The translations under genes were made by a program, and so were the position numbers. 64,000 nt of DNA from Patescibacteria group bacterium (GTDB taxonomy: Bacteria > Patescibacteriota > Minisyncoccia > Minisyncoccales > JAHCRE01). Position 1 is the stretch's first letter, and the number at the start of each line of letters is the position of its first letter. Below the pieces are notes generated by a model. The model did not search any database, had not been told where the DNA came from, and worked only from the letters and a program-made list of their open reading frames with translations. Shown one piece after another: positions 1,625 to 14,736 of this stretch. The stretch lies in assembly GCA_020148145.1 (NCBI GenBank), contig JAHCRE010000006.1, forward strand, positions 6,368 through 70,367, written 5' to 3'.

Positions 1625-1745
1625 CCCGAGAAAAACTCTCGGGTGGGGGCTTGCACTAAGCGTTGTCCAGGTGCTGCGGGGCCTGAACGCTGTTCGAACC
1701 TATTTTATGATACAAAACGGTATTTTGAGATACCAGTTTTGGCCA
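1625..1745 (-). repeat. Cassette-junction element copy A (family 1): terminator hairpin plus conserved 3' element
   Basis: Hairpin CCCGAGAG-TTTTT-CTCGGG at 1625-1643. Core GAACGCTGTTCGAACC at 1685-1700. About 80 nt alignable with copies at 6999-7110 and 11303-11415. Confidence 0.8.
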
Positions 1746-1774
1746 GTCCCTAATATACCCTATCCTCCTACTTA

Positions 1775-2053
1775 CTATTTCTTTCTTATTTTGATTGCTT
1801 TTCCATTGATTAAGGCTTCGGCTACTTTTTTACGAGCAGAAGTTAAAATTCGGCCTAAAGTGCTTTGAGAAATTTTCATTCTCTTAGCAGCTTTGATTTG
1901 GTTTAAACCTTTCAAATCACACAGTCTGATTGCTTCTAATTCATCTACGCCTAAATCAACTTCTTCTAACATAGAAAGAGGCACTGCCCTAGGCTTAAAA
2001 TATGTGACATTCGGATCAAACATGACCCTTCTTGGTTTTATTGGTCTTACCAT
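1775..2053 (-). CDS. DUF134/UPF0251-like small DNA-binding protein
   Basis: 92 aa. MVRPIKPRRV..FKPRAVP N-terminus and C-terminal HTH (MKISQSTLGRILTSARKKV), as I recall for DUF134. Last gene of the 4539-1775 operon. Confidence 0.65.
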   Translation of the reverse strand: MVRPIKPRRVMFDPNVTYFKPRAVPLSMLEEVDLGVDELEAIRLCDLKGLNQIKAAKRMKISQSTLGRILTSARKKVAEALINGKAIKIRKK

Positions 2054-2904
2054 AATTGATTGAGATTTTTAGAAATCTTTTTAATTTCTTTTTTAACTCT
2101 TAAATTGGTTTCTACGATTGGTTTTAAGTTGGCAATGGCTTTAAATATTTCCTTATCATAAGATATTTTGCCCAAAAATTTTTTGCCAGCCCACTTTTCT
2201 ATTTTATTGCTTAAACTTTTATAAATATCCCACTTATTAATTACTACACCATAAGGAATATTGAAATGATTAACTACTTTCAAAACTCTTTTTAAGTCAG
2301 TAAATCCAGAAGGAGTGGGTTCAGTAATCAGAATAGTAAAGTTTGCTCCCTGTAAAGAGGCAATCACTGGACAGCCGGTTCCAGGAGCGGAATCAATTAA
2401 CATTATTTCATAATTGAATTTTTCTGCTTCTTTTTTAATTTCGGTAACTACTTTACCAGACCCTGATTCTCCCGGATAAAGCTGACCAGAAATTAATGGA
2501 AAACCATATTTTGTTTTTTTAATTCTAATTTGGCCGTTTTGAACTGGTTTCAAAGAAATAGCTTTTTGGGGACAAATAACTTCACAAGCACCACAACCTT
2601 CACATAAAAATGGATTTAGTCGAGGTTTATCATTTACCATTTTTAATGCTTCAAATTTGCAATTTTTAACACAGAGGCTACAGCTATTGCATTTGTTTAA
2701 GTCAATCTCTGGCTTAGCCGAAGTAACCACTGGTAAAGTTTTATCCCATTTTTTTATTCCTCCTAACCAAATAGCTAAATTAGGGGCATCAACATCACAA
2801 TCTACAGCCGTAATCTTTTTCGATTTTCTAAAAAGCATTGCCAAAGCTGAAGTTAGCATCGATTTCCCTACTCCGCCTTTTCCAGAAGCTATAACTATTT
2901 TCAC
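2047..2904 (-). CDS. MinD/ParA-type P-loop ATPase with inserted 2x[4Fe-4S] ferredoxin motifs
   Basis: Deviant Walker A GKGGVGKS. CNSCSLCVKNC and CEGCGACEVICP cysteine clusters. Confidence 0.8.
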   Translation of the reverse strand: MKIVIASGKGGVGKSMLTSALAMLFRKSKKITAVDCDVDAPNLAIWLGGIKKWDKTLPVVTSAKPEIDLNKCNSCSLCVKNCKFEALKMVNDKPRLNPFLCEGCGACEVICPQKAISLKPVQNGQIRIKKTKYGFPLISGQLYPGESGSGKVVTEIKKEAEKFNYEIMLIDSAPGTGCPVIASLQGANFTILITEPTPSGFTDLKRVLKVVNHFNIPYGVVINKWDIYKSLSNKIEKWAGKKFLGKISYDKEIFKAIANLKPIVETNLRVKKEIKKISKNLNQLW

Positions 2905-2909
2905 ATTTC

Positions 2910-3740
2910 TTACAATTTTACTAATTCAAAATCGAGTAATTTCCCTTTTGAATAGGCCTCAACTAATTTTTTTGAATAAGGAATTTCTTTTTCTATTTTA
3001 ATTTTATATTTTTTGGCGATTTTTTGAATTTTCCTTTTATCTCCTAAATTAGCGTGATTCAAAATTATTTTGGCTGGCACCTTGAGTTTTTGGCATAAAT
3101 CCAAAATTAAATTCAAATCATAAGCTCCCATTGGAGTAGGTTCAGTAACAGCGTAAGCCAAATCACAACCCAAAAGAGCAGAAATTACTGGACAATGAGT
3201 ACCGGCAGCCGTATCAAATAAAAGAAAATCTGGCTTATTTTTCCTAACCAGATTTGAAACAAATTTTTTTGTTTTAGTAACTACAGGGCCTGTTTCCTCA
3301 AGGCCCGGTTTGGCAAGACCAGTTACTAGCCAATAGTCTTTCTCAATTTTATTTAAAAAGATTTGACCAATCTCTTCTTTTTTCGGCTGGATGGCTCCGT
3401 GTGGACAAACAATCCAGCAAGCTCCACAAGCTGAACATAGATCTTTAATAAATACTGGATATTTCTCTGGAGCTTGAAAAGCAGCATTATTTCGACAGAT
3501 TTCGACGCACAAACCACATTTTTTACATTTTCTTTTATTTAATTTTGGGAATTCAGCATAAACTTTCTTTTTGGATTTTTCTAATTTTTGACCCAATAAC
3601 AAATAATCATTAGGGCACTCCACATCACAATCACAAAGAATAACTTTCTTATCTTCTTTAATTAATTTATTAGCAAATAAGATAGTAATGGTACTTTTCC
3701 CAGTACCACCTTTGCCACCGGTAATAGCAATTTTTTGCAT
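2910..3740 (-). CDS. MinD/ParA-type P-loop ATPase with inserted 4Fe-4S motifs (paralog of 2047-2904)
   Basis: GGKGGTGKST Walker A. CKKCGLCVEIC and CSACGACWIVCP clusters. Confidence 0.8.
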   Translation of the reverse strand: MQKIAITGGKGGTGKSTITILFANKLIKEDKKVILCDCDVECPNDYLLLGQKLEKSKKKVYAEFPKLNKRKCKKCGLCVEICRNNAAFQAPEKYPVFIKDLCSACGACWIVCPHGAIQPKKEEIGQIFLNKIEKDYWLVTGLAKPGLEETGPVVTKTKKFVSNLVRKNKPDFLLFDTAAGTHCPVISALLGCDLAYAVTEPTPMGAYDLNLILDLCQKLKVPAKIILNHANLGDKRKIQKIAKKYKIKIEKEIPYSKKLVEAYSKGKLLDFELVKL

Positions 3741-3741
3741 G

Positions 3742-4071
3742 CTAAGTTGATTCTAATTCTCCTTTTTTAAATTTCTCCAAGGCCTCCTTGGCGGTTCCCG
3801 AAACCCCAGAAATTACTTTAATTCCCGATTGTTCTAGTACTGCTAAAGCATTAGGCCCAACATTGCCTACAATTACTACTTCTGCTTTTTCATTGGCAAC
3901 AGTCTGAGCAGCAGCAATTCCTGCTCCGCCCACTGCCTTTTTTGCTTCATTTTCTACTGTTTTAAATTCTTCGGTTTCCATATCTACAAATAAAAAATAA
4001 CTACATCTACCAAAAACTTGATCAATTGGAGAATCTAAATCAGGGCCAGTTGTACAAATACAAATTTTCAT
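3742..4071 (-). CDS. NifX/NifB-C-terminal-like (dinitrogenase FeMo-cofactor-binding fold) small protein
   Basis: 109 aa. MKICI...FGRCSYFLFVD...GAGIAAAQ..VIVGNVGPNA pattern typical of that family. Confidence 0.65.
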   Translation of the reverse strand: MKICICTTGPDLDSPIDQVFGRCSYFLFVDMETEEFKTVENEAKKAVGGAGIAAAQTVANEKAEVVIVGNVGPNALAVLEQSGIKVISGVSGTAKEALEKFKKGELEST

Positions 4072-4076
4072 AAATT

Positions 4077-4289
4077 TTATTTAGCCCTAGTCATTGAAGT
4101 GCCACATTTTGGGCATTTATAAGTATAACAAGGTGTCCCTCTTCCGTGAGGAACTTTGGTCCCACAATTCGGACAGATACATTCTCCCCCGGGTCCTAAA
4201 CCAAAACCACCAGGTTGTCGACCCCGACCACCTCTTCCGGGCGCTCTAAATCTCCCACCAGGAGGAATTGAAGGAATTCTCTTTGGCAT
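4077..4289 (-). CDS. Gly/Arg-rich zinc-ribbon protein
   Basis: 70 aa. GRGGRGRQPGGFGLGPGG followed by CPNCG...CPKCG. Confidence 0.55.
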   Translation of the reverse strand: MPKRIPSIPPGGRFRAPGRGGRGRQPGGFGLGPGGECICPNCGTKVPHGRGTPCYTYKCPKCGTSMTRAK

Positions 4290-4290
4290 G

Positions 4291-4539
4291 TTATTTTTTT
4301 CCTTTTTTAGTTTCTAACTCTCTTAATCTTTCTTCAATGGCTTTCATTTCCTCTCGTAAGGCCTTAAGCTCTTCCAAAAGCATCTCTTTTTCTTCTTTCG
4401 GAGTAGGCTCTTGCCAATTCTCAGGATAAGCCCACCACCAACGAGGAAGCCAAGGAAATCTAAAACATCTTCCCCCATATCTTCTTAAATCTCTTTGATT
4501 GTAAGCCCACCAAGGACCACCACCATAACCAAAAGGCAT
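4291..4539 (-). CDS. DUF5320-like protein (Trp/Arg-rich N-terminus, C-terminal coiled coil)
   Basis: 82 aa. Ends EEKEMLLEELKALREEMKAIEERLRELE. First gene of the operon. Confidence 0.5.
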   Translation of the reverse strand: MPFGYGGGPWWAYNQRDLRRYGGRCFRFPWLPRWWWAYPENWQEPTPKEEKEMLLEELKALREEMKAIEERLRELETKKGKK

Positions 4540-4588
4540 AATATTATAATCTATTAATTGCTATTACTTTTTCGACCTTTCTATTATG

Positions 4589-4617
4589 ATTATAAACCCA
4601 TAACTATGTCTTGTCAA
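4589..4617 (-). promoter_or_regulatory. Sigma70-type promoter TTGACA-17-TATAAT for the 4539-1775 operon
   Basis: Minus strand reads CCTTGACAAGACATAGTTATGGGTTTATAATC. Confidence 0.55.
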
Positions 4618-4635
4618 GGTTTATTTATCCACAAT

Positions 4636-4672
4636 TAAAAAAAATCGCTAAGGGGATTTTTCCGGTAGCGAT
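4636..4672 (-). terminator. Rho-independent terminator after 4727-5227
   Basis: ATCGCTA...TAGCGAT stem followed by T8 on the minus strand. Confidence 0.5.
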
Positions 4673-4726
4673 TTGTAACGAATACTTGCGAAAGAACAAT
4701 TTTATCCACTGTTGGACGAGAGGCAC

Positions 4727-5227
4727 TTATTTTATTCTTGCTGTCTGTTCCCTGATTATATTCATTACTTCTTCTGGTTTTTCAGTTGAAAAAACAAACT
4801 CTTTAAATCTACCTTTCTTCAATAAAAGCACAACTCGAGGAGCTCCTATAACATTATACACTAATCTCCATTTTCCCTTAACTCTTCCTATGCGTATGCC
4901 CCAACCTCCATATCTAATTATTGAGGCTTCGTCTAAATAACAATTCTTAATATTCTCCCAGGTGATGATGTGCCTAAAAATCCCATAACTGACCTTGACA
5001 GACAGATGAGTTATTCTAATGCTTAGCCTACTAAAATTAATCGTCACGCCTAAAAACAATAGAAACATAAGTAGGAAAAACCAGTTTGAAGCGGGACGAG
5101 TACCAACTGGTCCTACCAAAATTTGATAGACCAATACAAAAAGAAATCCAGCTGTAAAAGCGGTCAATATACTCGTCATCCACCACTTCGAGGATATCTT
5201 TTCTTCGTAGAGGTTACTTCTCTGCAT
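4727..5227 (-). CDS. Membrane protein, two TM helices plus small C-terminal soluble domain
   Basis: 166 aa ORF. Hydrophobic segments ILTAFTAGFLFVLVYQIL and WFFLLMFLLFLGV. Confidence 0.55.
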   Translation of the reverse strand: MQRSNLYEEKISSKWWMTSILTAFTAGFLFVLVYQILVGPVGTRPASNWFFLLMFLLFLGVTINFSRLSIRITHLSVKVSYGIFRHIITWENIKNCYLDEASIIRYGGWGIRIGRVKGKWRLVYNVIGAPRVVLLLKKGRFKEFVFSTEKPEEVMNIIREQTARIK

Positions 5228-5254
5228 TTTTTTTACCTAAACAATAAAAAAACT

Positions 5255-5479
5255 CTAAAAGAAAGCATACAATACAGCCATTGCCAGCGTGATAAATAGA
5301 GTCATACCAATCCAAAGTTTAGCACCAACTCTCCTTGTTATGTATCCAATATAAAGAAACACTGGAATTAAATATAAGGGCACCACATTCAGCGGTTTGT
5401 ATATTACATTCTTAAAAATTATTATCAATCCTATCATGAGAGCAGCTGTAACTATTGCTGTTTTTGTTTCATCTTTCAT
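5255..5479 (-). CDS. Small integral membrane protein
   Basis: 74 aa, three hydrophobic helices. Co-oriented just upstream of 4727-5227. Confidence 0.45.
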   Translation of the reverse strand: MKDETKTAIVTAALMIGLIIIFKNVIYKPLNVVPLYLIPVFLYIGYITRRVGAKLWIGMTLFITLAMAVLYAFF

Positions 5480-5522
5480 GTTTTTTGGTTGCTTATAAAT
5501 TATTTTATATAACCTTTAAAAC

Positions 5523-5531
5523 ATTCTACCA
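5523..5531 (-). promoter_or_regulatory. Extended -10 TGGTAGAAT fused to the preceding terminator T-tract
   Basis: Minus strand reads GGCGGTTTTTTGGTAGAATG. Confidence 0.45.
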
Positions 5532-5536
5532 AAAAA

Positions 5537-5680
5537 CCGCCTCTTTGGCGATTCTTTGGCTCCGCATATGCGACAATGCCTGCCCCGTATACAGCTTGCT
5601 GTTATTTTGGGTTAGAACCTGTTTGTTTAACTTATCTAAAAATATCTGTAAATCCTTTTCCGGAATTTAAGTAACCTTAG
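5537..5680 (-). repeat. Cassette-junction element copy G (divergent; type-2 hairpin)
   Basis: Hairpin CGCC-AAAGA-GGCG plus T6 at 5537-5550. Core remnant GGGTTAGAACC at 5609-5619. Confidence 0.55.
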
Positions 5681-5684
5681 CCCA

Positions 5685-6932
5685 TCACCCCTTCGATCCA
5701 CCAAGACAATGAGCACAGTTATCAAATCCTTGTTTATAAGCATCAATGAGATTGATAAATTTTACTTTATTAGTATTCTTGACTAAATCAAGCCAAGGAC
5801 AGGTATGTTGATGCACCTCCATATGATTTTTGTCCTTATTTCCGATGTATAAAATTTTAGGCCTTTTTATAAATTTTCCCCACACTAAAAGCCAAATTCG
5901 CGCTACTGATTCAACGACATCGTGAAAAACTCGATTAGTAATATCTACAAACTCTTCTTTCCCTTTTCTTTTAATTAATTCTCTTACATCGTCGTATCCT
6001 AATTCTTCATTTTCTGTGTCTTCTTTATCAATCCAAACTCGCGAGAGAGCATAAGATACTCTGCAGATATTAACCATCTCTTTCCATACATCACTATTGC
6101 TTTTCTTAAGTCCGTCAGCACTTGCACTTAATTTATACTTTTTTTCTTTATCTATTTTAATTATAGAATTTTTTGGAAGGTTAAGGACAATATCATCTAC
6201 TGAATCTTTAGAATATTTACCTATCCCTACTATTCTCTCCTCGGGAAAAGATTTATCCCATCTTTCTTCTATCGAAGGATGCAGGCGGGGCGGAATAGGT
6301 CTTATTCTGTTACCTCTATCATAATCTCGATAATCACAATGCAAAGGCATATGGCCATCAGCAATATAATGAGAGAGCATAAAAAAAGTGGTAGCGATTT
6401 GGCGAGCAGAAAAAGTAGGCGATAAAGAAAGACTCTTTATGCTTGCAGCAGACAAATCACACTCATAAGCCTTTCTTCTTTGCTCTCTAAGATAAAAGGC
6501 TAAGGGGAAATCACCAAGTTTCAGCATATCACTAACAGTATGAGTAAGAGCTATTACTCGATCAGGTAAATGTCCTTTCTGTGACCAATAAGATTCATTT
6601 AACACTTTTTCTCCTTCAAGGTATTTCAAACAAAGACGTCTCCCCCGGAGCCTGGATATAAGTTCTTCGTAGGGTACCTGGCTTCGTTTATCTTTTTTTA
6701 TAGAACCTAGAAGTTCTGGGTCATTAGTCTGTTTAAAAATATGGCCATACTGCATATCGCAGATTAAACTATCAGGAATCCAGGCTCCATTCCATGTATC
6801 AGAAAGATAATAAGAAAGGAGCTCTATTAATTTATCAGTATGATATACATTACCTATTTTACCATTAACGCTAATGTCATCTATAAACTTATAAGCTCGG
6901 AGGGCTATCCAACCATGAGCAGTACGTTTCAT
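5685..6932 (-). CDS. Zn-dependent phospholipase C / S1-P1 nuclease-like protein with C-terminal Ada-type Cys/His metal-binding domain
   Basis: 415 aa. N-terminal AHGWIALRA and SHYIADGHMPLHCD resemble the PLC/P1-nuclease Zn ligand motifs. C-terminus HQHTCPW...AYKQGFDNCAHC. Confidence 0.45.
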   Translation of the reverse strand: MKRTAHGWIALRAYKFIDDISVNGKIGNVYHTDKLIELLSYYLSDTWNGAWIPDSLICDMQYGHIFKQTNDPELLGSIKKDKRSQVPYEELISRLRGRRLCLKYLEGEKVLNESYWSQKGHLPDRVIALTHTVSDMLKLGDFPLAFYLREQRRKAYECDLSAASIKSLSLSPTFSARQIATTFFMLSHYIADGHMPLHCDYRDYDRGNRIRPIPPRLHPSIEERWDKSFPEERIVGIGKYSKDSVDDIVLNLPKNSIIKIDKEKKYKLSASADGLKKSNSDVWKEMVNICRVSYALSRVWIDKEDTENEELGYDDVRELIKRKGKEEFVDITNRVFHDVVESVARIWLLVWGKFIKRPKILYIGNKDKNHMEVHQHTCPWLDLVKNTNKVKFINLIDAYKQGFDNCAHCLGGSKG

Positions 6933-6979
6933 AATTTTTTCCTTTTATATGTTTTTATATTATCGACCTTTTCATTTCT

Positions 6980-6988
6980 ATTCTACCA
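6980..6988 (-). promoter_or_regulatory. Extended -10 TGGTAGAAT
   Basis: Minus strand reads CTCGGGGTTTTCTTTTGTGGTAGAATAG. Confidence 0.45.
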
Positions 6989-6998
6989 CAAAAGAAAA

Positions 6999-7110
6999 CC
7001 CCGAGAAAAACTCTCGGGCGGCGGAAATAAAAATACTGCGGGTAGTGGACGCTGTTAGAACCTATTTTATGAGAACAAAAGAGTATTTTGAGGTGCCGGT
7101 CTTGACCCAT
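6999..7110 (-). repeat. Cassette-junction element copy B (family 1)
   Basis: Hairpin CCCGAGAGTTTTTCTCGGGG at 6999-7018. Core GGACGCTGTTAGAACC at 7047-7062. Confidence 0.8.
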
Positions 7111-7240
7111 TCATAAACAAAAACTGCCTAATTATAGACAGTTCTTGCGTTCTTTTCTCCTTTTTCCAGCTCATAATTTACATTCTGGGCTCGAAAAAAG
7201 AGGGGGAAGGTGACGGCAAACGAATGATCCTGTGGTACCT

Positions 7241-7735
7241 CTACAATAGCAGTGCGCCTAATAGGAAAGAGATTAGCAAGGCGATGATTACTCCAGTGAG
7301 ATACTTTTCGCCGTCGCTGCTCTTCTTCCACCTACCGTAGAAAACGGCAGGAAGGAAGGCGCTTACCAAAAAACCCAAGTAGACGAAAGCTGGGATAACA
7401 GTTCGAGGAGTTAACGTTGCTGCGCTGTGTTCGTTTTCTAAGTCCTTTATTACCTCTGGCAAGCTTATGTCGAGCTGTTCGGGAGTCGTCATAGTGGCAA
7501 GGATTTGAAGGTTTTCCATGTTTGGTCCCTGTTGGTAGTGTTGAATAGCTTCTTTGACGTATCCAATCTTGTCTTCGAAAGCTTGTGCTTCCTTAGCTTG
7601 CTGTAAGTCAGCTATAGCGTCTGAGATGTGGCCGTACTCCATTGCTACGAAGTTGCTGTAACTATACCATGAGTAGAGTGCTACTGCTATTCCAATCACG
7701 AATAGTACCACGAAACCAAGCCTAGCTTTTTCCAT
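7241..7735 (-). CDS. Membrane protein (N-terminal and C-terminal TM helices)
   Basis: 164 aa ORF, GC-richer than neighbours. AGGAG Shine-Dalgarno-like sequence upstream. Confidence 0.55.
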   Translation of the reverse strand: MEKARLGFVVLFVIGIAVALYSWYSYSNFVAMEYGHISDAIADLQQAKEAQAFEDKIGYVKEAIQHYQQGPNMENLQILATMTTPEQLDISLPEVIKDLENEHSAATLTPRTVIPAFVYLGFLVSAFLPAVFYGRWKKSSDGEKYLTGVIIALLISFLLGALLL

Positions 7736-7760
7736 TTTTTTGCCCTTTCACTCCTGCTTT

Positions 7761-7806
7761 GAGCGAGCGAACTATTTACCAAACATGATAGACAATTCGC
7801 TCGCTC
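7761..7806 (-). promoter_or_regulatory. Perfect 11-bp inverted repeat GAGCGAGCGAA-N24-TTCGCTCGCTC in the 5' region of 7241-7735
   Basis: Arms at 7761-7771 and 7796-7806. The spacer contains TGGTAAAT (-10-like) on the minus strand. Confidence 0.5.
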
Positions 7807-7862
7807 AGAACTCCTTTCCCCCTTAATTTTTTATCAAAGAACTATCTTATTCTTACACCTTA

Positions 7863-7892
7863 ATTATACTATATAATTTTCTATCTTGTCAA
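7863..7892 (-). promoter_or_regulatory. Sigma70-type promoter TTGACA-18-TATAAT
   Basis: Minus strand reads CTTGACAAGATAGAAAATTATATAGTATAATTA. Confidence 0.5.
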
Positions 7893-7894
7893 GC

Positions 7895-8100
7895 GGCGGC
7901 TCTCAGAAAGACGGGGCGGGGCGGAAATAAAAAAGATAAAATGTGAGGCCTTTCGGTCATCCGAAATGCTCACAAGCCTGCTCGGACTATTGGACGATTT
8001 TAGAACCTTAAGATGGGAAGACGTGTTTAAATATCCTGAGGTTGTATTAGGACAGATGAGGGAATTGTGTAAACGATGCTAGGACCTGATTTATGAGGTT
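7895..8100 (-). repeat. Cassette-junction element copy D (family 2)
   Basis: Core GGACGATTTTAGAACC at 7992-8007. Terminator-like hairpin at 7943-7973. About 80 nt alignable with 8641-8780. Confidence 0.75.
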
Positions 8101-8619
8101 TTAATCTAAATATGAATCTATAACTTTCCAAGTAATTTCACCCCCATCTGAAACCGTATATTCAAGCAACATATATCCCCCAATGTGTCCATCTTCAAAC
8201 CAAGCCAAAACCCATTTTTTTGTTAAAATCCATATATTATCTTTACTGTAAAAACCCATAGTGCCTCCCAGAATACCTTCATATGGTATCAACTCTGAAT
8301 GTTGCATAAGGTCAGATTTTAAATCGTTAACAGGGTCTATCAATCCTTTCTTTTTTAGCTCATCAATTTCCCAACTCCATAATTTGGGATCACTTTCTAA
8401 GCATCCTTCTCTTTGTTCTAATAATTCATTAATTTGCCGCTGCAAATCCTCCTTTTCCCTCTTCTCTTGTTCAAATTGAGCCTGTAATTCACTTATCTGT
8501 TGTCCCATCTCAGATTTTACACCCTCTAAAGCAGATTTTTGCCACAAATAGACACCGCTCGCCACTAAAACGATAATAATCAATAAAATGATTCCCTTTG
8601 CAATATCTTTGTTTTCCAT
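8101..8619 (-). CDS. Membrane-anchored protein with coiled coil
   Basis: 172 aa. N-terminal TM helix GIILLIIIVLVASGVYLW, then a Q/E-rich helix. Confidence 0.6.
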   Translation of the reverse strand: MENKDIAKGIILLIIIVLVASGVYLWQKSALEGVKSEMGQQISELQAQFEQEKREKEDLQRQINELLEQREGCLESDPKLWSWEIDELKKKGLIDPVNDLKSDLMQHSELIPYEGILGGTMGFYSKDNIWILTKKWVLAWFEDGHIGGYMLLEYTVSDGGEITWKVIDSYLD

Positions 8620-8627
8620 ATTATTAC

Positions 8628-8636
8628 ATTATAACA
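8628..8636 (-). promoter_or_regulatory. Extended -10 TGTTATAAT, 8 nt upstream of the ATG (leaderless candidate)
   Basis: Minus strand reads TGTTATAATGTAATAATATG. Confidence 0.45.
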
Positions 8637-8640
8637 CAAA

Positions 8641-8780
8641 CCTAAGAAAAACTATCGGGGGCGGGCGGCTCGGTCTAGCGGACGATTTTAGAGCCTTGAG
8701 ATGGGGAAAGGTGTTTAAATATCCTGAAGTTTTATTAAAACAAACGAGGGAATTATTAGAATTTACCCCAAAAACCTAAA
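8641..8780 (-). repeat. Cassette-junction element copy E (family 2, degenerate hairpin)
   Basis: Core GGACGATTTTAGAGCC at 8680-8695. Hairpin decayed to CCTAAGAAAAACTATCGGGGG. Confidence 0.7.
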
Positions 8781-8800
8781 AGTAGAAAGCATCTCTTCGT

Positions 8801-9913
8801 TTATTTTTGAATATCAATAATTATTCTTACTGGATTTGTTAAGGCGTAGAGATAATATTCAGAATATTTATTTAAAGCTATTGAATATTGAAGTGTTTGA
8901 TCGTCATAAATTTTTTCTTGGACATAAGAAAATACTACCGGATCTCCGATCTCTACAATTTTTCCAATTGATGGGCCAGCGAGATTGTTTCTCATACCAT
9001 TGATTACCACCTCAATCACCTTCGCGCTTGCATAAAGAACAGCCTTAGTAAAAGGAATCGCTTGGGCTTCTGAACCATCGAGTTTCTTTATTTCAAAAAC
9101 AAAACGATAAAATGCTCCGTGATCGCTATATCTAATAGCATTAAGCATTAATCCATCGGTTGGCTCACCTATTGTTTGCGCTCCGCCTTGAAATTTTGCT
9201 TCTTCGCCTTCAAATATTTCTGAAGAAATTTCTAGCACCTTGTTATAAATTTTATTGTATAGTTCAAGATACTTAACGCTAAAATCTACCTCAAAACCTT
9301 CCAAGAGAGAACGGTGTAATTTTATCTGGTTGAAATAATAATCTGCCCTTAGGTGATCCTCTTTATAATAGTGGGCAAAGCCATTAATAAAAAATGAAAT
9401 TACCTGCGTATCAGCTAAAAGGTCATCAGCGCCCGAAAAAAAGAATTCTGGTTCATATCCACACCGTTGGGTAGTATTTTCTAGATCATTAAAAATGATG
9501 CTTTCTGCAATACATACTTTTGTTCGCTGAACTTTCCAACTTCTCAAGTCAGGGGCATCTTGGATTTCTAGCTCTAGATCTTCAAATTTTCTGATAAGTT
9601 CCTGAACTCTATTCTTTATGTCTGTATCTTTAAATTCCAAAGCGTCTAACAAGATTCTATCAGCCCCAACATCATTAAAACTTATCGTTCTTTTTTGAGC
9701 ATATTCTCTTAATATTTCATTAACCCCTTCATCAGACAAAATAACTTGTTGGGCATTAATGCCCTCCTCTGGTTTCTTTATCTCAGGAAATTCAGTAAGA
9801 GAAATCTCTTGTTTTATTACATACCATAAGATTGTTCCAACAACTAAGATGCCTAAAAGTATTACAATTCCAATATAGTTCCAATTAGTTTTACCTTGTT
9901 TAATAAAATTCAT
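8801..9913 (-). CDS. Membrane-anchored extracytoplasmic protein, no recognisable family
   Basis: 370 aa. N-terminal TM helix YIGIVILLGILVVGTILWYVI. Confidence 0.6.
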   Translation of the reverse strand: MNFIKQGKTNWNYIGIVILLGILVVGTILWYVIKQEISLTEFPEIKKPEEGINAQQVILSDEGVNEILREYAQKRTISFNDVGADRILLDALEFKDTDIKNRVQELIRKFEDLELEIQDAPDLRSWKVQRTKVCIAESIIFNDLENTTQRCGYEPEFFFSGADDLLADTQVISFFINGFAHYYKEDHLRADYYFNQIKLHRSLLEGFEVDFSVKYLELYNKIYNKVLEISSEIFEGEEAKFQGGAQTIGEPTDGLMLNAIRYSDHGAFYRFVFEIKKLDGSEAQAIPFTKAVLYASAKVIEVVINGMRNNLAGPSIGKIVEIGDPVVFSYVQEKIYDDQTLQYSIALNKYSEYYLYALTNPVRIIIDIQK

Positions 9914-9921
9914 ATTATCTA

Positions 9922-9927
9922 ATTATA
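9922..9927 (-). promoter_or_regulatory. -10 TATAAT, 8 nt upstream of the ATG (leaderless candidate)
   Basis: Minus strand reads GTTATAATTAGATAATATG. Nearly identical to the leader at 10735-10750. Confidence 0.45.
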
Positions 9928-9951
9928 ACTTAAATCACCCGCAAAACAAAA

Positions 9952-10016
9952 CCCCGAGAGAAAAACTCTCGGGCGGGGCGGGCGGAAATAAAAAAAGAGG
10001 CAGTTGAAACTGCCTT
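9952..10016 (-). terminator. Two tandem terminators (AGGCAGT hairpin plus the shared CCCGAGAG hairpin)
   Basis: AGGCAGTTTCAACTGCCT plus T7 at 9998-10016. CCCGAGAGTTTTTCTCTCGGGG plus T-tract at 9952-9973. Confidence 0.65.
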
Positions 10017-10052
10017 TGTTCGAGAAAATAAGGTTTTTTTAACGACCGTGGT

Positions 10053-10268
10053 TCAGTCCTCGAGGATGACTTCGTTATTTCTTAGAAAGGCTTTTTGTCC
10101 AGCTCTGTTGTAAGTAAGCGAACCATCTCCCCAATGGAGACGCCCACAGGTATCACAAGGGTAAGCGGTCGCATGAGGACCGCAGCATCCGCCACCACAC
10201 CCAGTCATAAGAGAGATAGGATTACTCGTATCAATTTCTCCTGTGCAGCCTTCCTGTTTACATTTCAT
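10053..10268 (-). CDS. Small Cys-rich (zinc-finger-like) protein
   Basis: 71 aa with 9 Cys (CKQEGC, GCGGGCCGPH, CDTCG). AAGGAGG Shine-Dalgarno sequence 7 nt upstream. GC-rich. Confidence 0.55.
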   Translation of the reverse strand: MKCKQEGCTGEIDTSNPISLMTGCGGGCCGPHATAYPCDTCGRLHWGDGSLTYNRAGQKAFLRNNEVILED

Positions 10269-10416
10269 TTCTAAACCTCCTTATCTCTTACTGATAAAGA
10301 TTATATAACTTTTTATCAAAAAAATCAACTCCTAGGGGGCAGGAGGAGCAAGTTAGAGGATTTGTCGATGCTCCCCTGGTGGACGATGTAAGAACCTGTC
10401 TGGTGGAATCTCAGAA

Positions 10417-10734
10417 CTAATCTGCACAAAGCATTTCTTCTGGGCGTTCGGGATCCCAGAAATAACAACCAGTCCATCTTCCTGAACAGAACCAGTTCTT
10501 TCCATCTTTAGAGATGCAACGCTCATCTTCAGGACAATCGGTGTGTAAGCTACAAGGTTTCTGTGAGTCTGGAGCACAATAAGGACCAGAGAGAGAACCA
10601 AATTTTTTGTATCCTTCGGGACACCGCAAAAGTTTGTAGCGGATTGGTATAAAAAAGGGGGAATTATAGATGAACCATCCACCGATTATAATTATTCCAA
10701 CTATTAAAATGACAATTAAGGTTTTTGTGGTCAT
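10417..10734 (-). CDS. Small secreted/membrane-anchored Cys-rich protein
   Basis: 105 aa. N-terminal TM helix LIVILIVGIIIIGGWFIY, then 8 Cys. Confidence 0.55.
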   Translation of the reverse strand: MTTKTLIVILIVGIIIIGGWFIYNSPFFIPIRYKLLRCPEGYKKFGSLSGPYCAPDSQKPCSLHTDCPEDERCISKDGKNWFCSGRWTGCYFWDPERPEEMLCAD

Positions 10735-10742
10735 ATTATCTA

Positions 10743-10748
10743 ATTATA
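10743..10748 (-). promoter_or_regulatory. -10 TATAAT, 8 nt upstream of the ATG (leaderless candidate)
   Basis: Minus strand reads GGTATAATTAGATAATATG. Confidence 0.45.
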
Positions 10749-10772
10749 CCTCAAATCGTCCGCAAACCAAAA

Positions 10773-10915
10773 CCCCGAGAAAAACTCTCGAGGGCGGGCG
10801 GAAATAAAAAAGCTCCCCCTATTGGACGCATTCAGAACTGTCAATTGGAAAAGAATTAGAGAGGAATTGGAAGAATTAGGGCTTAGTTTAGGGATTCAAT
10901 TAGCTCCTGTAAAGA
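10773..10915 (-). repeat. Cassette-junction element copy F (family 2-like)
   Basis: Hairpin CTCGAGAGTTTTTCTCGGGG at 10773-10792. Core GGACGCATTCAGAACT at 10824-10839. Confidence 0.7.
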
Positions 10916-10916
10916 T

Positions 10917-11195
10917 TTAAATAAAAAAATTCGGGCGGTCAGTTTTCTGAAACGCCCTTTGAATTTGGTTAAGTAAGTCCTGGAGTCTCCTTGGGGGTTC
11001 TTTTGTTTCTTTAATCCTTTTTAATGCTGGAATCCAAATGAAATTTCCACCGCAAAATCTGCAACTCGGGTCGTTTCCTTCCTTAATCTTTTTGAATCCA
11101 TACTGGCTTGCTGTATGGCCTGTTTTTCCTTCTACTACAATCCCCTCGCATTCAAACTCTGCACCGCAACCTTTACATCTGTATCTCTCGCTCAT
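10917..11195 (-). CDS. Small zinc-ribbon protein
   Basis: 92 aa. CKGCG...CRFCG. Confidence 0.5.
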   Translation of the reverse strand: MSERYRCKGCGAEFECEGIVVEGKTGHTASQYGFKKIKEGNDPSCRFCGGNFIWIPALKRIKETKEPPRRLQDLLNQIQRAFQKTDRPNFFI

Positions 11196-11238
11196 TCTTC
11201 CACTTCCTTTTATATTTTATAGAAAGAACTGTCTTTAA

Positions 11239-11268
11239 ATTATACTATTATTATTTCAAGCTCGTCAA
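11239..11268 (-). promoter_or_regulatory. Sigma70-type promoter TTGACG-18-TATAAT
   Basis: Minus strand reads CTTGACGAGCTTGAAATAATAATAGTATAATTT. Confidence 0.5.
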
Positions 11269-11302
11269 GATTTTAACAGGGTCTGCCCGACATAATCAAA
11301 AA

Positions 11303-11415
11303 CCCCGAGAAAAACTCTCGGGCGGTGCCATGCTGCGGGGCCTGAACGCTATTAGAACCTATTGGCAGTGGACAATGGAATACTCTGCGATACCAGTCTT
11401 TAATAAAATATAAAG
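11303..11415 (-). repeat. Cassette-junction element copy C (family 1)
   Basis: Hairpin at 11303-11322. Core GAACGCTATTAGAACC at 11344-11359. Confidence 0.8.
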
Positions 11416-11430
11416 GAAAACTGTTGTCAA

Positions 11431-12381
11431 CTAACTAAGCATCTTAGTGTTTTGGGTTATATTAAAATCATTTAATTTTTTTGTAACTTCTTTAAGATCT
11501 ATTTTTCTGGAAACATAAGGAAAACGTACTACATTTTTGGTGTACTCTTCTTCAAAGCCAACTTTAAATAGGACTTGGCTCTGTTTTTTATCTTTATATT
11601 TGCAGAGCCCTGTTAATACAGATATTAAGTTGGAATAATCAGGAACATAAATTCGATTACCAAAAGCTCGTTGGAGATCCTTTGTTACAAAAATGCCATT
11701 TATACTAACTTTAAAAGCATTATTATCTATCATAAACTTGCCTGTTTTTATTGCAACTTCTATTACCTCCTCTCGTTTCATGTCTAAACCGCCTAGCATT
11801 ATATATCCGTTCCACTCAATATTTAGTTTATTTAAAATATCTACCGCTTGCTGAATTTGTTGTGTGTCGTTCCCTTTTTTATGTTTTTTTAATAATTCAT
11901 CATCAAAAAATTCTATTCCTAATCTTATTCTCAATTTTTTTGTCTCTAAATGAGATTTTATAGTTTTAAGTTTTTCTTGGAAACGAATTACATCATCTAC
12001 TCTTGCCTCGATTTCATACGCCTTACATTTTTGATGAAGGGCAATATACTTTGGGATATCTATTAAAATAGTTGGTTGATACATCTCTTCCTCCCTCAAG
12101 ATATTCCCGCCGTTATATAAAACTAGTGAATTCGGAGAATACTTGGTTATATACTTTTTAATTTTAGCTAATACTTCATTACCAAATTCTTCATTGATTT
12201 TTAAATTCTTATTACGCTCTTCCTGAACACCGCAAAATAAACATCGGGGAGTCTTCGTGCATCCTGTATAAGGAATAGTTACATAAAGAACTTTCTCTTT
12301 GCCTAATTTAATTAAAGTAACCTCATAACGCCCTGATTTTCCTTGTTCTTCTATTTTGATATTTGATTCTTTAGAATCCAT
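11431..12381 (-). CDS. Radical-SAM-like TIM-barrel protein with variant Cys motif (Cx5Cx2C)
   Basis: 316 aa. GCTKTPRCLFCG, then LYNGGNIL and RIRLGIEFFDDELLKKHKKG..IMLGG resemble radical SAM core strands. Assignment is tentative. Confidence 0.45.
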   Translation of the reverse strand: MDSKESNIKIEEQGKSGRYEVTLIKLGKEKVLYVTIPYTGCTKTPRCLFCGVQEERNKNLKINEEFGNEVLAKIKKYITKYSPNSLVLYNGGNILREEEMYQPTILIDIPKYIALHQKCKAYEIEARVDDVIRFQEKLKTIKSHLETKKLRIRLGIEFFDDELLKKHKKGNDTQQIQQAVDILNKLNIEWNGYIMLGGLDMKREEVIEVAIKTGKFMIDNNAFKVSINGIFVTKDLQRAFGNRIYVPDYSNLISVLTGLCKYKDKKQSQVLFKVGFEEEYTKNVVRFPYVSRKIDLKEVTKKLNDFNITQNTKMLS

Positions 12382-12388
12382 ATTCTCA

Positions 12389-12397
12389 ATTCTACCA
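12389..12397 (-). promoter_or_regulatory. Extended -10 TGGTAGAAT, 7 nt upstream of the ATG (leaderless candidate)
   Basis: Minus strand reads GGGCGGTTTTTTGGTAGAATTGAGAATATG. Confidence 0.45.
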
Positions 12398-12403
12398 AAA
12401 AAC

Positions 12404-12480
12404 CGCCCTCTTGGCGATTTTTAATGCCGCTCGGTCGCTCGAACCGAGCACTAGCCTGCTCCGCGATTTAAACAATTACA
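12404..12480 (-). repeat. Cassette-junction element copy I (family 2 fragment; type-2 hairpin)
   Basis: CGCC-AAGAG-GGCG plus T6 at 12404-12416. GGAGCAGGCTAGTGCTCGG aligns with CCGAGCAGGCTTGTGAGC of copy D. Confidence 0.55.
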
Positions 12481-12810
12481 AACTTTCTCTATTATCCTAC
12501 CAAATCTTATCCATCAGTGTAGGAAACGGGACTTAAAAAACTAAAAACCTTACCCCTAACTATATATACTTTTACTATTATTTTCTTTTACTCTTTGGTG
12601 GGCTCGGTCGCTCGCTATTGCTCGCTCCCTCGCCCCTATTTTATATTCAAAAAATGAGTTTTTGAAGGTAAAAAATCCTCTAAGACCCCTCTTTTGCAAA
12701 AATTAAAAGTTGACGTTGACTCGACATTCGAGTGTCGAGTTTTTATCAAAAGTTGTCGTTCACTTGTCGTTCTAGAACGACAAGTTTTTGAATCTAATAA
12801 TTTTTAAAGA
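12481..12810 (-). other. ORF-less unit bracketed by a junction promoter and terminator; palindromes, iterated TTGTCGTTC and GTTGAC motifs
   Basis: No ORF of 60 aa or more on either strand. 22-nt perfect palindrome at 12763-12784. Hairpin at 12720-12739. GTTGACGTTGAC at 12709-12720. GC-rich tract at 12598-12637. Confidence 0.5.
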
Positions 12811-12819
12811 ATTCTCCCA
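12811..12819 (-). promoter_or_regulatory. Extended -10 TGGGAGAAT fused to a terminator T-tract
   Basis: Minus strand reads GGCGATTTTTTGGGAGAATTC. Confidence 0.4.
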
Positions 12820-12823
12820 AAAA

Positions 12824-12910
12824 ATCGCCCCTTTGGCGATTAGTTAGCTCCGGGGATGGTACAATATTAGAACTTGGTTTTGGGATAATTTTCCAATAAT
12901 AGGCCCATTA
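12824..12910 (-). repeat. Cassette-junction element copy H (divergent; type-2 hairpin)
   Basis: ATCGCC-AAAGG-GGCGAT plus T6 at 12824-12840. Core GGTACAATATTAGAACT at 12858-12874. Confidence 0.6.
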
Positions 12911-12914
12911 TATC

Positions 12915-13709
12915 TTAAAGTACCTTGTTATCTCGAATAAATTTAAGTTGTTTTGTCCAATCCATTAGATTGCCTTCTACCCTACTAAGATCCCGATCTG
13001 ACAATGGATTATGATGGGCAATAATACGTCTTGATGGTATAGTTTCATCTAGTTTCGATAATAACCATTCGGTTTTTCTCCTTTGATTTTTCAAATACTT
13101 ATTAAAAATTCTATTATGGCTCTTCAAAATTAAAATTAAATCTCCAAAATCAGAATAATATATTGGATGATCGCCCCTTTTACCGTGCCAGGCTCTTCGC
13201 TTTTCTTCTTTCATTCGCTCTTTTACTCTAGTCATGATTTCAGAAAGTTTTTTGGTATTCATTTTTGTCGGCCACCAATCTGAACCAAATTCTTTTTCTA
13301 AGACTTTATTTATAAAATTTCTAATAGAATTTTCAAAAATATAAAGTACAAGATATGCTTTTCCTGCCATTTTTACTGCGTCTTTTTTCACCGAATTTGG
13401 CAACAAAGGTTCATTGATTATACCAAATTGGGTCTTAATTGGCCTCGACACAGAGGATCTAGCCTTATAGTATAGTCTTCTTTTTTTCTCAGATTGAGAA
13501 ACTTGAATTGCACTAGCTATTTTACTCTGTTCTTTTAGGGAAAGTTTCTTAAGTTCCCTTGAATAGCCCACATTATTTTCTGCAGCCAGAATAAAAATAG
13601 CCTCTTTTGAAGTAAGACCAAGAGGTCTTCCTCTTTGCCAAATTCTTTTCTTTAGAGCGACCACTGTGGAAGATCTAAGTTTTTTTTGAAGACGTTCAAG
13701 AAGAGTCAT
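12915..13709 (-). CDS. Swt1-like HEPN domain protein (predicted RNase)
   Basis: 264 aa. C-terminal half FENSIRNFINKVLEKEFGSDWW...YSDFGDLILIL...SRRIIAHHNPL fits the HEPN Rx4-6H motif and the Swt1-type layout as I recall it. Confidence 0.6.
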   Translation of the reverse strand: MTLLERLQKKLRSSTVVALKKRIWQRGRPLGLTSKEAIFILAAENNVGYSRELKKLSLKEQSKIASAIQVSQSEKKRRLYYKARSSVSRPIKTQFGIINEPLLPNSVKKDAVKMAGKAYLVLYIFENSIRNFINKVLEKEFGSDWWPTKMNTKKLSEIMTRVKERMKEEKRRAWHGKRGDHPIYYSDFGDLILILKSHNRIFNKYLKNQRRKTEWLLSKLDETIPSRRIIAHHNPLSDRDLSRVEGNLMDWTKQLKFIRDNKVL

Positions 13710-13885
13710 GACTTCTTTTTCTTTTTTATTTCCTTAATTGGAACAATTTGCTGAACTCTTCTCTTGCTAATCTCTAAAATCTCTGCAATATCCTTTGATT
13801 CAGCCCCGTTCAACATTGCATTCAAAATTAGAAGCCTTTTAATCGCTTCCAGTGGTTTTAGTGATTGTTTCCTTTTCTTAGCCAT
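13706..13885 (-). CDS. Small HTH protein (59 aa; below ORF-track cutoff)
   Basis: Own translation: MAKKRKQSLKPLEAIKRLLILNAMLNGAESKDIAEILEISKRRVQQIVPIKEIKKKKKS. Its stop overlaps the next gene's start (ATGA). Confidence 0.55.
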   Translation of the reverse strand: MAKKRKQSLKPLEAIKRLLILNAMLNGAESKDIAEILEISKRRVQQIVPIKEIKKKKKS

Positions 13886-13892
13886 ATTGTTT

Positions 13893-14066
13893 TTATTTCT
13901 TTTTCAAATGTTTGGCAATTTTATTCACCATGTTAATATCTGTGCCAACTATCTTCCGTATCTTACGTTGGGTCATACCAGCTCTGCTAAGCTCAACAAT
14001 CAAAAGCTTCTTCAGTAAATCTATAATCTCCTCTGTTTCAGATTTTTTTTCCTGTTTTTTATTCAT
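13893..14066 (-). CDS. Small HTH protein
   Basis: MNKKQEKK...LSRAGMTQRKIRKIVGTDINMVNKI. Start chosen at the internal ATG (14066), directly after the upstream stop. The track ORF starts at 14096. Confidence 0.5.
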   Translation of the reverse strand: MNKKQEKKSETEEIIDLLKKLLIVELSRAGMTQRKIRKIVGTDINMVNKIAKHLKKK

Positions 14067-14067
14067 T

Positions 14068-14304
14068 TTACTTCTTCTTTCTTCTTTTGTTATCATAAAG
14101 TAAATGTGATACTTGTGTATTAGTTTTCCCTAGCAATCGTGCAATTTCTTGGTTTTTAAAACCTAATTGTCTCAATTGACTAGCTAAACTAGCCAAAGTC
14201 ATTTTTGATCTTTTTTCTTCACTTTGGGTAAGAGAGGTTAGTAAAAAGTTAATTATCACATCTAATCTCTTTATGATGTCTTGTGTGTTTTTGTTCGAAG
14301 GCAT
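14068..14304 (-). CDS. Small HTH protein
   Basis: 78 aa. LRQLGFKNQEIARLLGKTNTQVSHLL helix-turn-helix. Confidence 0.55.
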   Translation of the reverse strand: MPSNKNTQDIIKRLDVIINFLLTSLTQSEEKRSKMTLASLASQLRQLGFKNQEIARLLGKTNTQVSHLLYDNKRRKKK

Positions 14305-14317
14305 ATTGCTTTGTTGT

Positions 14318-14617
14318 TTAAATCAATTTAAAAAAATATTTTTTGCCTTTTCTGGTTTCACTTGTGATAAAACCTAACTCAGAGAGTGTTGTTAAGTGGT
14401 GGGTAACTGTTGGCTGTTTGACCCTGAGGATTTTAGCAATTTCAGTAACACCTTTTTTGCCATCACATAAATTATAGACTTTTTTTCTAGGCCCACTAGC
14501 TAATGCTTTCTCTTTAGCAGCTTCTATTTGATCAGCGTGTGTTAGCTTATAGAGAGAGAGGACTTGGTTAAGAACAGACTTTAAAGCTATTATTTCTTTT
14601 ATAAATTCTTCGTTCAT
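14318..14617 (-). CDS. Winged-helix (ArsR/MarR-like) transcriptional regulator
   Basis: 99 aa. GVTEIAKILRVKQPTVTHHLTTLSELGFI. Confidence 0.6.
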   Translation of the reverse strand: MNEEFIKEIIALKSVLNQVLSLYKLTHADQIEAAKEKALASGPRKKVYNLCDGKKGVTEIAKILRVKQPTVTHHLTTLSELGFITSETRKGKKYFFKLI

Positions 14618-14666
14618 TTATATCTTTTTTCTATAAGTTTAATTTTTAACATTGTCGACCATATAT

Positions 14667-14695: not shown

Positions 14696-14736
14696 GAACC
14701 AGAACATAATACTCACACAGGGCTCGAATCGAGAAA

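Follow-up and report, generated by a model that had tools for sequence, protein, structure and literature searches.

Bacteria of the candidate phyla radiation (CPR) have tiny genomes, and the gain and loss of their genes are little understood. Among the described systems of gene capture, the attC sites of integrons are 57-141 bp long and carry imperfect inverted repeats (R''-L''/L'-R') which fold as a hairpin, the consensus of R'' and R' being RYYYAAC and GTTRRRY. A dif-type site is 28 bp long and has two inverted 11-bp arms and a 6-bp centre. Tandem integrative elements at tRNA genes form the tycheposon islands of Prochlorococcus (bioRxiv 10.1101/2020.12.28.424599), and tandem elements at tmRNA are reported to form the ssrA islands of Dehalococcoides (PMC3146451). 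In streptococci, cis-mobilizable elements (CIMEs) and accretion at att sites are known from ICE (integrative and conjugative element) and IME (integrative and mobilizable element) systems (PMC5704250). In our study, a 64-kb stretch of DNA from a Patescibacteria group bacterium (contig JAHCRE010000006.1; the whole stretch is called the window) has been analysed for a repeated site of about 35 nt, also called the core, which separates the small gene cassettes of an array lying directly 3' of a tRNA-Gln gene. In its behaviour this array is comparable to integron cassettes, CIMEs or tycheposon satellites, yet by their defining features it cannot be placed in any of these families. We regard it as the best-supported reading, and as moderately probable, that the cores are att-type sites and that small non-autonomous cassettes were serially inserted at tRNA 3' ends by an unlinked recombinase, with a 22-nt arm of the site as the putative protein-binding part and an acceptor-like segment of 8 nt as the putative exchange region.

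The window has a GC content of about 35% and nearly all of its genes lie on the minus strand. In minus-strand order prfB, ftsE, ftsX and tRNA-Gln(CTG) are followed by about 14 kb of small, unrelated and co-oriented accessory genes, and the ftsE-ftsX-tRNA-Gln synteny was found to be kept in 22 related loci. The order at the junctions on the gene strand is stop codon, 40-100 nt, core, terminator hairpin, promoter-like extended -10 and next gene. A logo of 185 unique sites has shown that the site is composed of the conserved 22-nt arm AAACAGGTTCTAACATCGTCCA, 8 variable GC-rich nt and AGC. A preliminary description of this DNA had listed eight direct copies and one inverted copy of the motif. The anchor, the array and its direct copies are given below from the tRNA outwards; L-numbers, here and later, denote the related-genome and metagenome loci which were compared with the window.

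15562..15633, minus strand: tRNA-Gln(CTG), anchor of the array, whose 3' end is the proximal boundary (ARAGORN; Rfam tRNA, 56.7 bits)
1672..15561, minus strand: whole cassette array, about 10 units of 1-9 co-oriented genes (open reading frames (ORFs), Pfam)
14805..14839, minus strand: site H, first of the direct copies, at a distance of 722 nt from the end of the tRNA (profiles)
12846..12880, minus strand: site G, of the subtype AACCAAGTTCTAATATTGTACCATCCCCGGAGC, which is also found in L092, L132, L134 and L155 (profiles)
12458..12482, minus strand: probable decayed site keeping ..CGCGGAGC, followed by a T-arm-like hairpin module at 12429-12457 (read from the sequence)
11331..11363, minus strand: site C, with the end GCCCCGCAGCA (profiles)
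10811..10846, minus strand: site F, with the end GGGGGAGC (external profile, E 0.06)
10368..10401, minus strand: site J, absent from the earlier list (profiles)
8668..8702, minus strand: site E (repeat family D3, profiles)
7979..8014, minus strand: site D, followed by a T-arm-like hairpin module at 7930-7978 (profiles)
7034..7069, minus strand: site B, the top-scoring copy (external profile, E 1.7e-8)
5558..5624, minus strand: site K, split into AAACAGGTTCTAAC, 33 inserted nt and ATTGTCGCATATGCGGAGCC (5' half, E 0.03)
1672..1707, minus strand: site A, the last copy within the window and the one to which the coordinates of the preliminary description refer, with the end GCCCCGCAGCA (profiles, pairwise alignment)

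The probable decayed site at 12458..12482 gave no profile match and was placed by reading the sequence. The 3' half of the split site K resembles the G-type sites (repeat family D7), and its 33-nt insertion falls between ..GGTTCTAAC and ATTGTC...

The repeat family is genuine and local to the tRNA-Gln array. When a 20-nt pattern taken from copy A was searched with up to 3 mismatches allowed, 3 matches were obtained, where shuffled sequence gave an expectation of 0.00, and the matches of a profile made from the eight direct copies of the earlier list were confined to the 1.6-15.6 kb region. A second profile was built from 269 copies outside the window, so that the recovery of the window copies by it is not circular. 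With E values from 1.7e-8 to 3.5e-3 it found 7069-7035, 8008-7979, 1707-1672, 11363-11331, 12880-12846, 8696-8668, 10401-10374 and 14832-14814, all on the minus strand; weaker matches were obtained at 5624-5611 (E 0.03), 10838-10811 (E 0.06) and, inverted, at 15510-15539 (E 0.18). Nothing else in the window came below E = 2.9 with this profile, and the other 48 kb are without a site. All nine positions of the preliminary description were found to hold the motif, and its quoted sequences and shared blocks (TAGGTTCGAA and CCCC..CAGCA) are correct; its list of copies was sound for what it contained and missed the intact site at 10368-10401, the split site at 5558-5624 and the probable decayed one at 12458-12482.

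The same arrangement is widespread. Relatives were collected through FtsX homologues in species-representative genomes, namely metagenome-assembled genomes (MAGs) of Nealsonbacteria and other Parcubacteria, and ftsX-tRNA-Gln synteny was present in most of them. Cores lie downstream of tRNA-Gln, always in the orientation of the tRNA, in L003, L007, L008, L010, L014, L018 and L020, and the tRNA-plus-array geometry was found again in nine related genomes as well as in many metagenome contigs. Scanning of metagenome contigs with a 19-nt pattern of the arm gave at least 120 stretches, and the genome and metagenome loci together hold at least 280 sites in at least 129 loci with a GC content from 30 to 59%. 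Among the matches listed, no locus has sites of mixed orientation, the median spacing of the sites is 783 bp (interquartile 490-1155 bp), 87 of 134 intervals (65%) contain one ORF and 194 of 206 ORFs (94%) are co-oriented with the sites.

A tRNA gene on the same strand lies upstream of the first site in at least 30 loci (Gln 17, Asn 5, His 4, Glu 2, Gly 1 and Ser 1), and most of the loci without an upstream tRNA have less than 2 kb of upstream sequence. The start of the arrays coincides with the 3' end of tRNA-Gln, Asn, His or Glu. The geometry claimed earlier, with sites 3' of the tRNA and in its orientation, was borne out; the array of the window starts exactly at the tRNA 3' end and the arrangement recurs in relatives. 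Repeats far from any tRNA, which had been named as an observation that would speak against a tRNA origin, were not encountered as such; yet the sites are not specific to tRNA-Gln, since the anchors are of several tRNA types. Further, the 8-nt variable segment agrees with the acceptor 3' strand of the anchor at 5.36 of 8 positions compared with 4.70 +/- 0.15 after permutation, and the observed value was reached in 0 of 5000 permutations; ends of the ..GACCC(A) type in His-anchored arrays and of ..CCCGCAGC in Gln-anchored arrays are examples. The conservation of the site is at the DNA level, with the third codon positions of the antisense frame as conserved as the first.

Comparison of related loci has shown a rapid turnover next to the tRNA gene. 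Between L010 and L014 the identity of the backbone is 97-98% and stops exactly with the last base of tRNA-Gln, beyond which no relationship is left, and L003 and L013, which are close relatives of both, have a third tRNA-proximal unit. In L018 and L020 the arrays differ throughout, and homology, at 84% identity, is regained precisely at the last site, which lies immediately upstream of the ftsZ promoter. The two stretches of 151 nt which follow tRNA-Gln and an internal site of L010 are 96.7% identical to each other, and such duplications, in which the flank after the tRNA equals the flank after a site, were also found in L007 and L018. The T arm, the acceptor strand and the 60-nt flank of the window's tRNA-Gln, including the inverted half-copy at 15509-15539, are colinear with a site and its flank in L118 and L162. 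As the same flanks follow tRNAs and sites, the tRNA 3' end and the site are interchangeable as left boundaries of the right-hand modules. In pairs of sites with only one flank in common, the variable segment mostly accompanies the downstream flank (29 pairs, 9.5 of 12 positions identical against a background of 5.3); in some of these pairs, and in some that share the upstream flank alone, it accompanies the upstream flank instead. The breakpoints are therefore found on both sides of the segment, which is to be expected if it is the exchange region.

The preliminary description had also proposed that the core resembles the T arm and 3' end of the adjacent tRNA-Gln. The profile of the eight direct copies scored the window's own tRNA-Gln with only 3.1 bits (E 7.8), which is not significant, so the profile test against the own tRNA is negative; related genomes change the picture. 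The pairwise scores of copies A and C and of some cores of relatives against tRNA-Gln were 26-32, compared with maxima of 19-24 for shuffled tRNAs and 16-23 for other tRNAs, whereas those of most other cores were not individually significant. The proposal therefore holds for a subset of the cores in pairwise comparison and not at the level of the profile. In L010, one core and the tRNA-Gln agree at 21 of 23 positions with a single 5-nt gap (GGTTCTAAcgtcgTCCAAGACCCGCAGC vs GGTTCGAA-----TCCAAGCCCCGCAGC). The commonest tRNA-Gln 3' end among the relatives is GGTTCGAATCCAAGCCCCGCAGC; the sites of the window end in CCCCGCAGC, the acceptor strand of the relatives' tRNA-Gln which copies A and C carry, or in other ends, and never in the resident CCCTCCAGC. 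The conserved arm by itself matches the T arms of all tRNAs weakly (p ~0.012), and the 5-nt insertion is present in all sites and in no tRNA. The tRNA resemblance is real, but it is not one of simple decay.

A cassette unit comprises a flank module (often a terminator plus a promoter), one or a few co-oriented genes and the terminal 35-nt site, and the site takes the place of tRNA positions ~44-74, that is, the T arm and the acceptor 3' strand. According to the mechanism that we propose, a recombinase encoded elsewhere would bind the conserved arm on the cassette and the T-arm region on the tRNA gene. Strand exchange would take place in or beside the 8-nt acceptor-like segment, and a circular cassette would enter directly 3' of the tRNA gene or of an existing site, with older cassettes being pushed outward. 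The anatomy of the units, their anchoring at tRNA genes, the equivalence of tRNA end and site as left boundaries, the rapid turnover beside the tRNA and the breadth of the family are shown by the sequences; from these we infer that the process is a site-specific recombination, where its crossover lies and that an enzyme acts in trans.

Several observations weigh against insertion by a recombinase acting in trans. No recombinase domain was found in the 64-kb window by Pfam and inspection of ORFs, none was found in the inspected arrays, including those of L010 and L020, and none recurs among the 119 large ORFs of the metagenome loci. A tyrosine-recombinase profile of limited sensitivity, run on 0.82 Mb of loci, found only one pseudogene, in L085. 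No circular cassette, empty site or single-cassette polymorphism was observed, and no tRNA was seen in at least 22 loci with over 2 kb of sequence before their first site. The variable segments are heterogeneous within one array and mostly unlike the resident tRNA, whereas strict identity of the overlap predicts otherwise. Moreover, the site has a single conserved arm and lacks dyad symmetry, an unusual state for the core site of a tyrosine recombinase, and the apparent conservation of the arm is inflated as the metagenome loci were chosen by the arm's own 19-nt pattern (one site per locus).

The pseudogene of L085 (3747-4160, minus strand) is a frameshifted tyrosine recombinase of the 191-aa type and adjoins a site on the opposite strand (4227-4263, plus strand). 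Its intact relatives form a 191-aa family on circularly permuted contigs of about 5.5 kb (L193-L196) and on other small elements, and none of the elements with these intact integrases carries the site. L193-L196 also carry an HTH_17 protein and a methyltransferase-nuclease fusion. Viral contigs were scanned as well, and the only true site was in L036, a fragment of a phage (IMG/VR contig IMGVR_UViG_3300009529_003397, ~53% GC) that carries the genes for terminase, portal and capsid; the complete site (14695-14729, minus strand) lies exactly where AT-rich DNA meets phage DNA, and this junction is counted in favour of att-type sites. The remaining viral matches were chance 17-mers and the annotated phage and plasmid collections gave nothing, and a phage attP was rejected.

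The array may, on a more tentative view, represent an undescribed gene-capture platform of CPR bacteria, analogous to the integron and built independently of it. In such a platform the tRNA 3' ends (Gln, Asn, His, Glu) would form the entry site, and the 35-nt tRNA mimic would play the role of attC on self-expressed single-gene cassettes. The unlinked recombinase, either a housekeeping enzyme or that of another element, would read the T-arm-like arm and exchange strands in the acceptor-like segment. We consider this wider proposal possible rather than probable. Full-text literature searches gave no description of the motif or of cassette arrays in Patescibacteria.

The comparison with the described systems has highlighted both shared and distinct features, the tycheposon and the tandem ssrA islands being the closest of them. 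As in tycheposon and ssrA islands, there would be serial insertion at a tRNA 3' end with newer elements displacing older ones outward, and tRNA-3'-like direct repeats stand at the junctions with variable cargo beside a conserved backbone. Those islands carry their own tyrosine or serine recombinase and true partial-tRNA repeats, whereas the units found here are mostly single genes without a recombinase, and a non-tRNA arm with its 5-nt insertion is common to arrays at four or more tRNA types. The tyrosine or large serine recombinase with a replication module that marks tycheposons was not found, the cargo being unrelated accessory genes. Of the features of classical tRNA islands, the position 3' of a tRNA with tRNA-oriented repeats is present in the window and in at least 30 loci; the repeats are not near-identical to the 3' segment of the resident tRNA, and there is no integrase gene per element in the window and the inspected arrays.

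The likeness to integrons and to clusters of attC sites lacking an integrase (CALINs) consists in arrays of short, mostly single-ORF and co-oriented cassettes with a site-like repeat at the 3' end and one preferred entry; as in CALINs, there is no adjacent integrase. The arm holds TTCTAAC and has a rare inverted partner, GTTAGAA, both of which are near the R'' and R' consensus of integrons. Unlike in integrons, the site is only ~35 nt long and has no R''-L''/L'-R' inverted repeats, the entry is a tRNA gene instead of attI, and the cassettes have promoter-like and terminator modules of their own. No intI with attI and Pc promoter was found in the 64-kb window or beside the arrays. The motif GTT[AC]G[AG]AC was present within 180 nt downstream of 6 out of 275 sites, with about 3 true inverted partners. 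Membership of the attC family was rejected on account of the rare inverted partners, the lack of intI and folding like that of shuffles, and the functional analogy is kept.

CIMEs, too, are att-flanked units that have no recombination genes; they accumulate as tandems at one att site of the chromosome and need an integrase in trans, and the units of the array are flanked by sites and free of recombination and transfer genes. However, CIMEs recognisably descend from ICEs or IMEs, with one or two units beside an integrase-bearing element, whereas up to 10 units per locus were found here with no helper nearby. Modules exchanged by Xer at dif, such as the integrative mobile elements exploiting Xer (IMEX) and plasmid pdif modules, also have short conserved sites that delimit genes, and there a housekeeping recombinase acts in trans. 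The site is not dif-like, since the logo has shown a single conserved arm; the lack of a dyad, the tRNA anchoring and the uniform direct orientation are further differences.

Among the alternatives, an exchange without any dedicated recombinase survives best, although we hold it to be unlikely. In this case the junction sequences and the tRNA gene would serve as portable homology, and cassettes taken up by the cell would be swapped by homologous or homology-facilitated recombination, as in minimal mobile elements. It agrees with the lack of a linked recombinase, with the several conserved modules which recur around the sites and after tRNAs, and with a probable dependence of CPR bacteria on DNA uptake. 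Crossovers inside the arm also predict that the variable segment mostly follows the downstream flank, as was found; some pairs, however, break on the right of this segment. Moreover, an anchor of 22-35 nt is very short for RecA-type exchange, homologous recombination does not require the strict single orientation and the strict placement at the tRNA 3' end, and the arm is far better conserved than the genomes around it. A role as uptake sequence was rejected, as the 48 kb of core genome in the window contain no copy of the site.

The model of the preliminary description in its literal form, in which the cores are partial copies of the adjacent tRNA-Gln decaying passively as attR scars of degraded integrase-carrying islands or prophages, appears improbable. 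The position and orientation relative to the tRNA fit this model, and the geometry is known from tycheposon islands and reportedly from the Dehalococcoides ssrA islands (PMC3146451). An acceptor block of 11 nt and GGTTCGAA are common to copies A and C and to tRNA-Gln genes, true tRNA 3' fragments that lack the insertion are present in L098 and L130, and a phage adjoins the site in L036. On the other hand, the 22-nt arm and the 5-nt insertion are kept across at least 129 loci, and the arm is the same whether the anchor is Gln, Asn, His or Glu, a result which independent decay would not produce. An origin from the resident tRNA-Gln is further contradicted by its acceptor strand, which is unlike that in the cores, copies A and C having that of the relatives. 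The units are mostly single genes of ~0.8 kb without integrase remnants, and no integrase accompanies them. Hence the conservation across genomes largely refutes this model.

It is very improbable that the core acts at the level of RNA or transcription, either as a T-arm mimic in the 3' untranslated region for a tRNA-processing or RNA-binding factor or as a protein-binding operator, its link with tRNA being incidental to the location of the island. The position of the core between the stop codon and the terminator of most cassette genes would suit such a role, as would the T-loop consensus GGTTCnAA within the core and the above-mentioned weak match of the arm to all tRNAs. But the core has no stable or conserved fold (fold z-scores from -1.4 to +0.6), no complement of the acceptor-like segment lies within 120 nt to either side of it, and the cores have no Rfam match. 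The tracking of the anchor tRNA by the variable part and the breaking of inter-genome homology at the site would be left unexplained. A structured RNA or tRNA-like minihelix was rejected on the same grounds, the folds being no better than those of shuffles and the Rfam scans, with gathering and E-value thresholds, finding only tRNA.

Lastly, a coding origin of the cores, as small antisense ORFs or as N-termini of integrases split in the manner of Sulfolobus spindle-shaped viruses (SSV), is suggested by the plus-strand peptide L-x-x-L-D-D/A-V-R-T-x-F/W, by a frame that stays open for 20-40 codons after each window copy, by synonymous-looking changes (CGA/AGA, ACC/ACT) and by the L085 pseudogene, which reads through the site in the L-x-x-L-D frame, but it is essentially refuted, as the frame closes right after the core in many relatives, the third positions are not relaxed (1.61 bits vs 1.45 for the first, computed from the logo), 2 nt are deleted in the inverted copy, no Pfam family matches the peptides, and the motif is missing from the intact homologues of the L085 integrase, as is the site from their elements; the SSV-type split integrase was rejected on this last ground.

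If the insertion of cassettes at these sites is confirmed, the site family would mark the main variable locus of many CPR bacteria, and a second, independently evolved form of integron-like cassette stockpiling, tied to tRNA genes, would be recognised. The 22-mer could then be used as a handle to find cassettes in metagenomes and to search for the recombinase, and it would help to explain why MAG contigs break just after certain tRNA genes. It would also bear on the question of why tRNA 3' ends are universal targets of integration.

Many MAG contigs of the relatives (L011, L012, L013, L025, L027 and others) were seen to stop within ~100 nt after ftsX or tRNA-Gln, so the assemblies evidently break at this variable, repeat-rich locus. 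Breaks in the assembly were considered as a sign of heterogeneity and rejected: in the source sample, Logan unitigs stop at junction modules, which is explained by repeated k-mers.

Besides the sites, the array contains recurrent modules, which are as follows.

15470..15561, minus strand: flank module 3' of the tRNA, with the inverted half-copy 15509-15539, a T tract and the promoter-like GATAGAAT
5523..5560, minus strand: repeated terminator-plus-promoter module ..AATCGCC..GGCGGTTTTTTGGTAGAAT (pattern search)
1625..1643, minus strand: repeated terminator hairpin CCCGAGAGTTTTTCTCGGG (pattern search)

The whole flank module at 15470..15561 aligns with the sequence following sites in L118 and L162, and it has a T2 module match at 15491-15509. 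The inverted half-copy (..GTGGACGGTTAGAAC), which matches at E 0.04-0.18, is part of this conserved module at 15509-15539 in the window, at ~5215-5235 in L118 and at ~2065-2085 in L162. Together with an upstream site it makes an inverted repeat of 9+6 bp with a 2-nt bulge and a loop of ~45 nt, which is attC-like; a true inverted partner is present in only about 3 of 275 sites. The terminator hairpin CCCGAGAGTTTTTCTCGGG is repeated at 7000-7018, 8641-8659, 9955-9973, 10774-10792 and 11304-11322, which gives 6 matches against 0.03 expected with none outside the array, and the copies score as intrinsic terminators. The terminator-plus-promoter module has further copies at 12389-12422, 12811-12844 and 15491-15509 (4 matches against 0.05 expected, confined to the array), and it also lies 3' of tRNA-Gln or of sites in L006, L008, L020 and L132.

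A second recurrent module after many sites is AGGCTAGTG-CTCGG-TTCGAGCGA-CCGAG, itself a T-arm-like hairpin. It is found in the window at 12429-12457 and 7930-7978 (minus strand) and after sites or tRNA-Gln in L010, L018, L098, L109 and L136. What follows the AGGCTAGTG hairpin module in L098 and L130 is a true 3' fragment of a tRNA, which lacks the 5-nt insertion (GGGTTCGAATCCTAGTTCTGGAGC).

The cargo of the array, as predicted from ORFs and Pfam, includes LigT, HTH_5, HEPN_Swt1-like and radical SAM proteins, several Cys-rich mini-proteins, an S1/P1-nuclease-like protein and a gene set of DUF134, two CbiA/Fer4, Nitro_FeMo-Co and DUF5320. This set, with its two CbiA/ParA-Fer4 P-loop NTPases, forms the largest unit (1775-4539, minus strand), and its DUF134 gene is 76% identical in DNA to one in the array of L014. 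The other 48 kb of the window carry housekeeping genes (ribosomal proteins, SecY, MreB, aminoacyl-tRNA synthetases and RNase P RNA), and the RNase P RNA (class A, 127 bits) lies at 22811-23178 on the plus strand, opposite to nearly all genes of the window.

Two further arrangements involve tRNA genes themselves. On the reverse strand of L089 (~6725-5884), a 5' fragment, 22 nt long, of the resident tRNA-Gln (TGCGGGATCGTCTAATGGTAGG) precedes a LAGLIDADG-like ORF, after which comes a complete replacement tRNA-Gln, an arrangement which suggests that a homing endonuclease may have driven the replacement of the tRNA gene. The replacement allele is TGGAGGG...CCCTCCA, and the tRNA-Gln of the window is of the same allele type. 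In L140 (~4583-4616), the 5' half of a tRNA with the acceptor TCCGCGG, truncated in the anticodon loop, lies inside the array downstream of a dcd-like gene.

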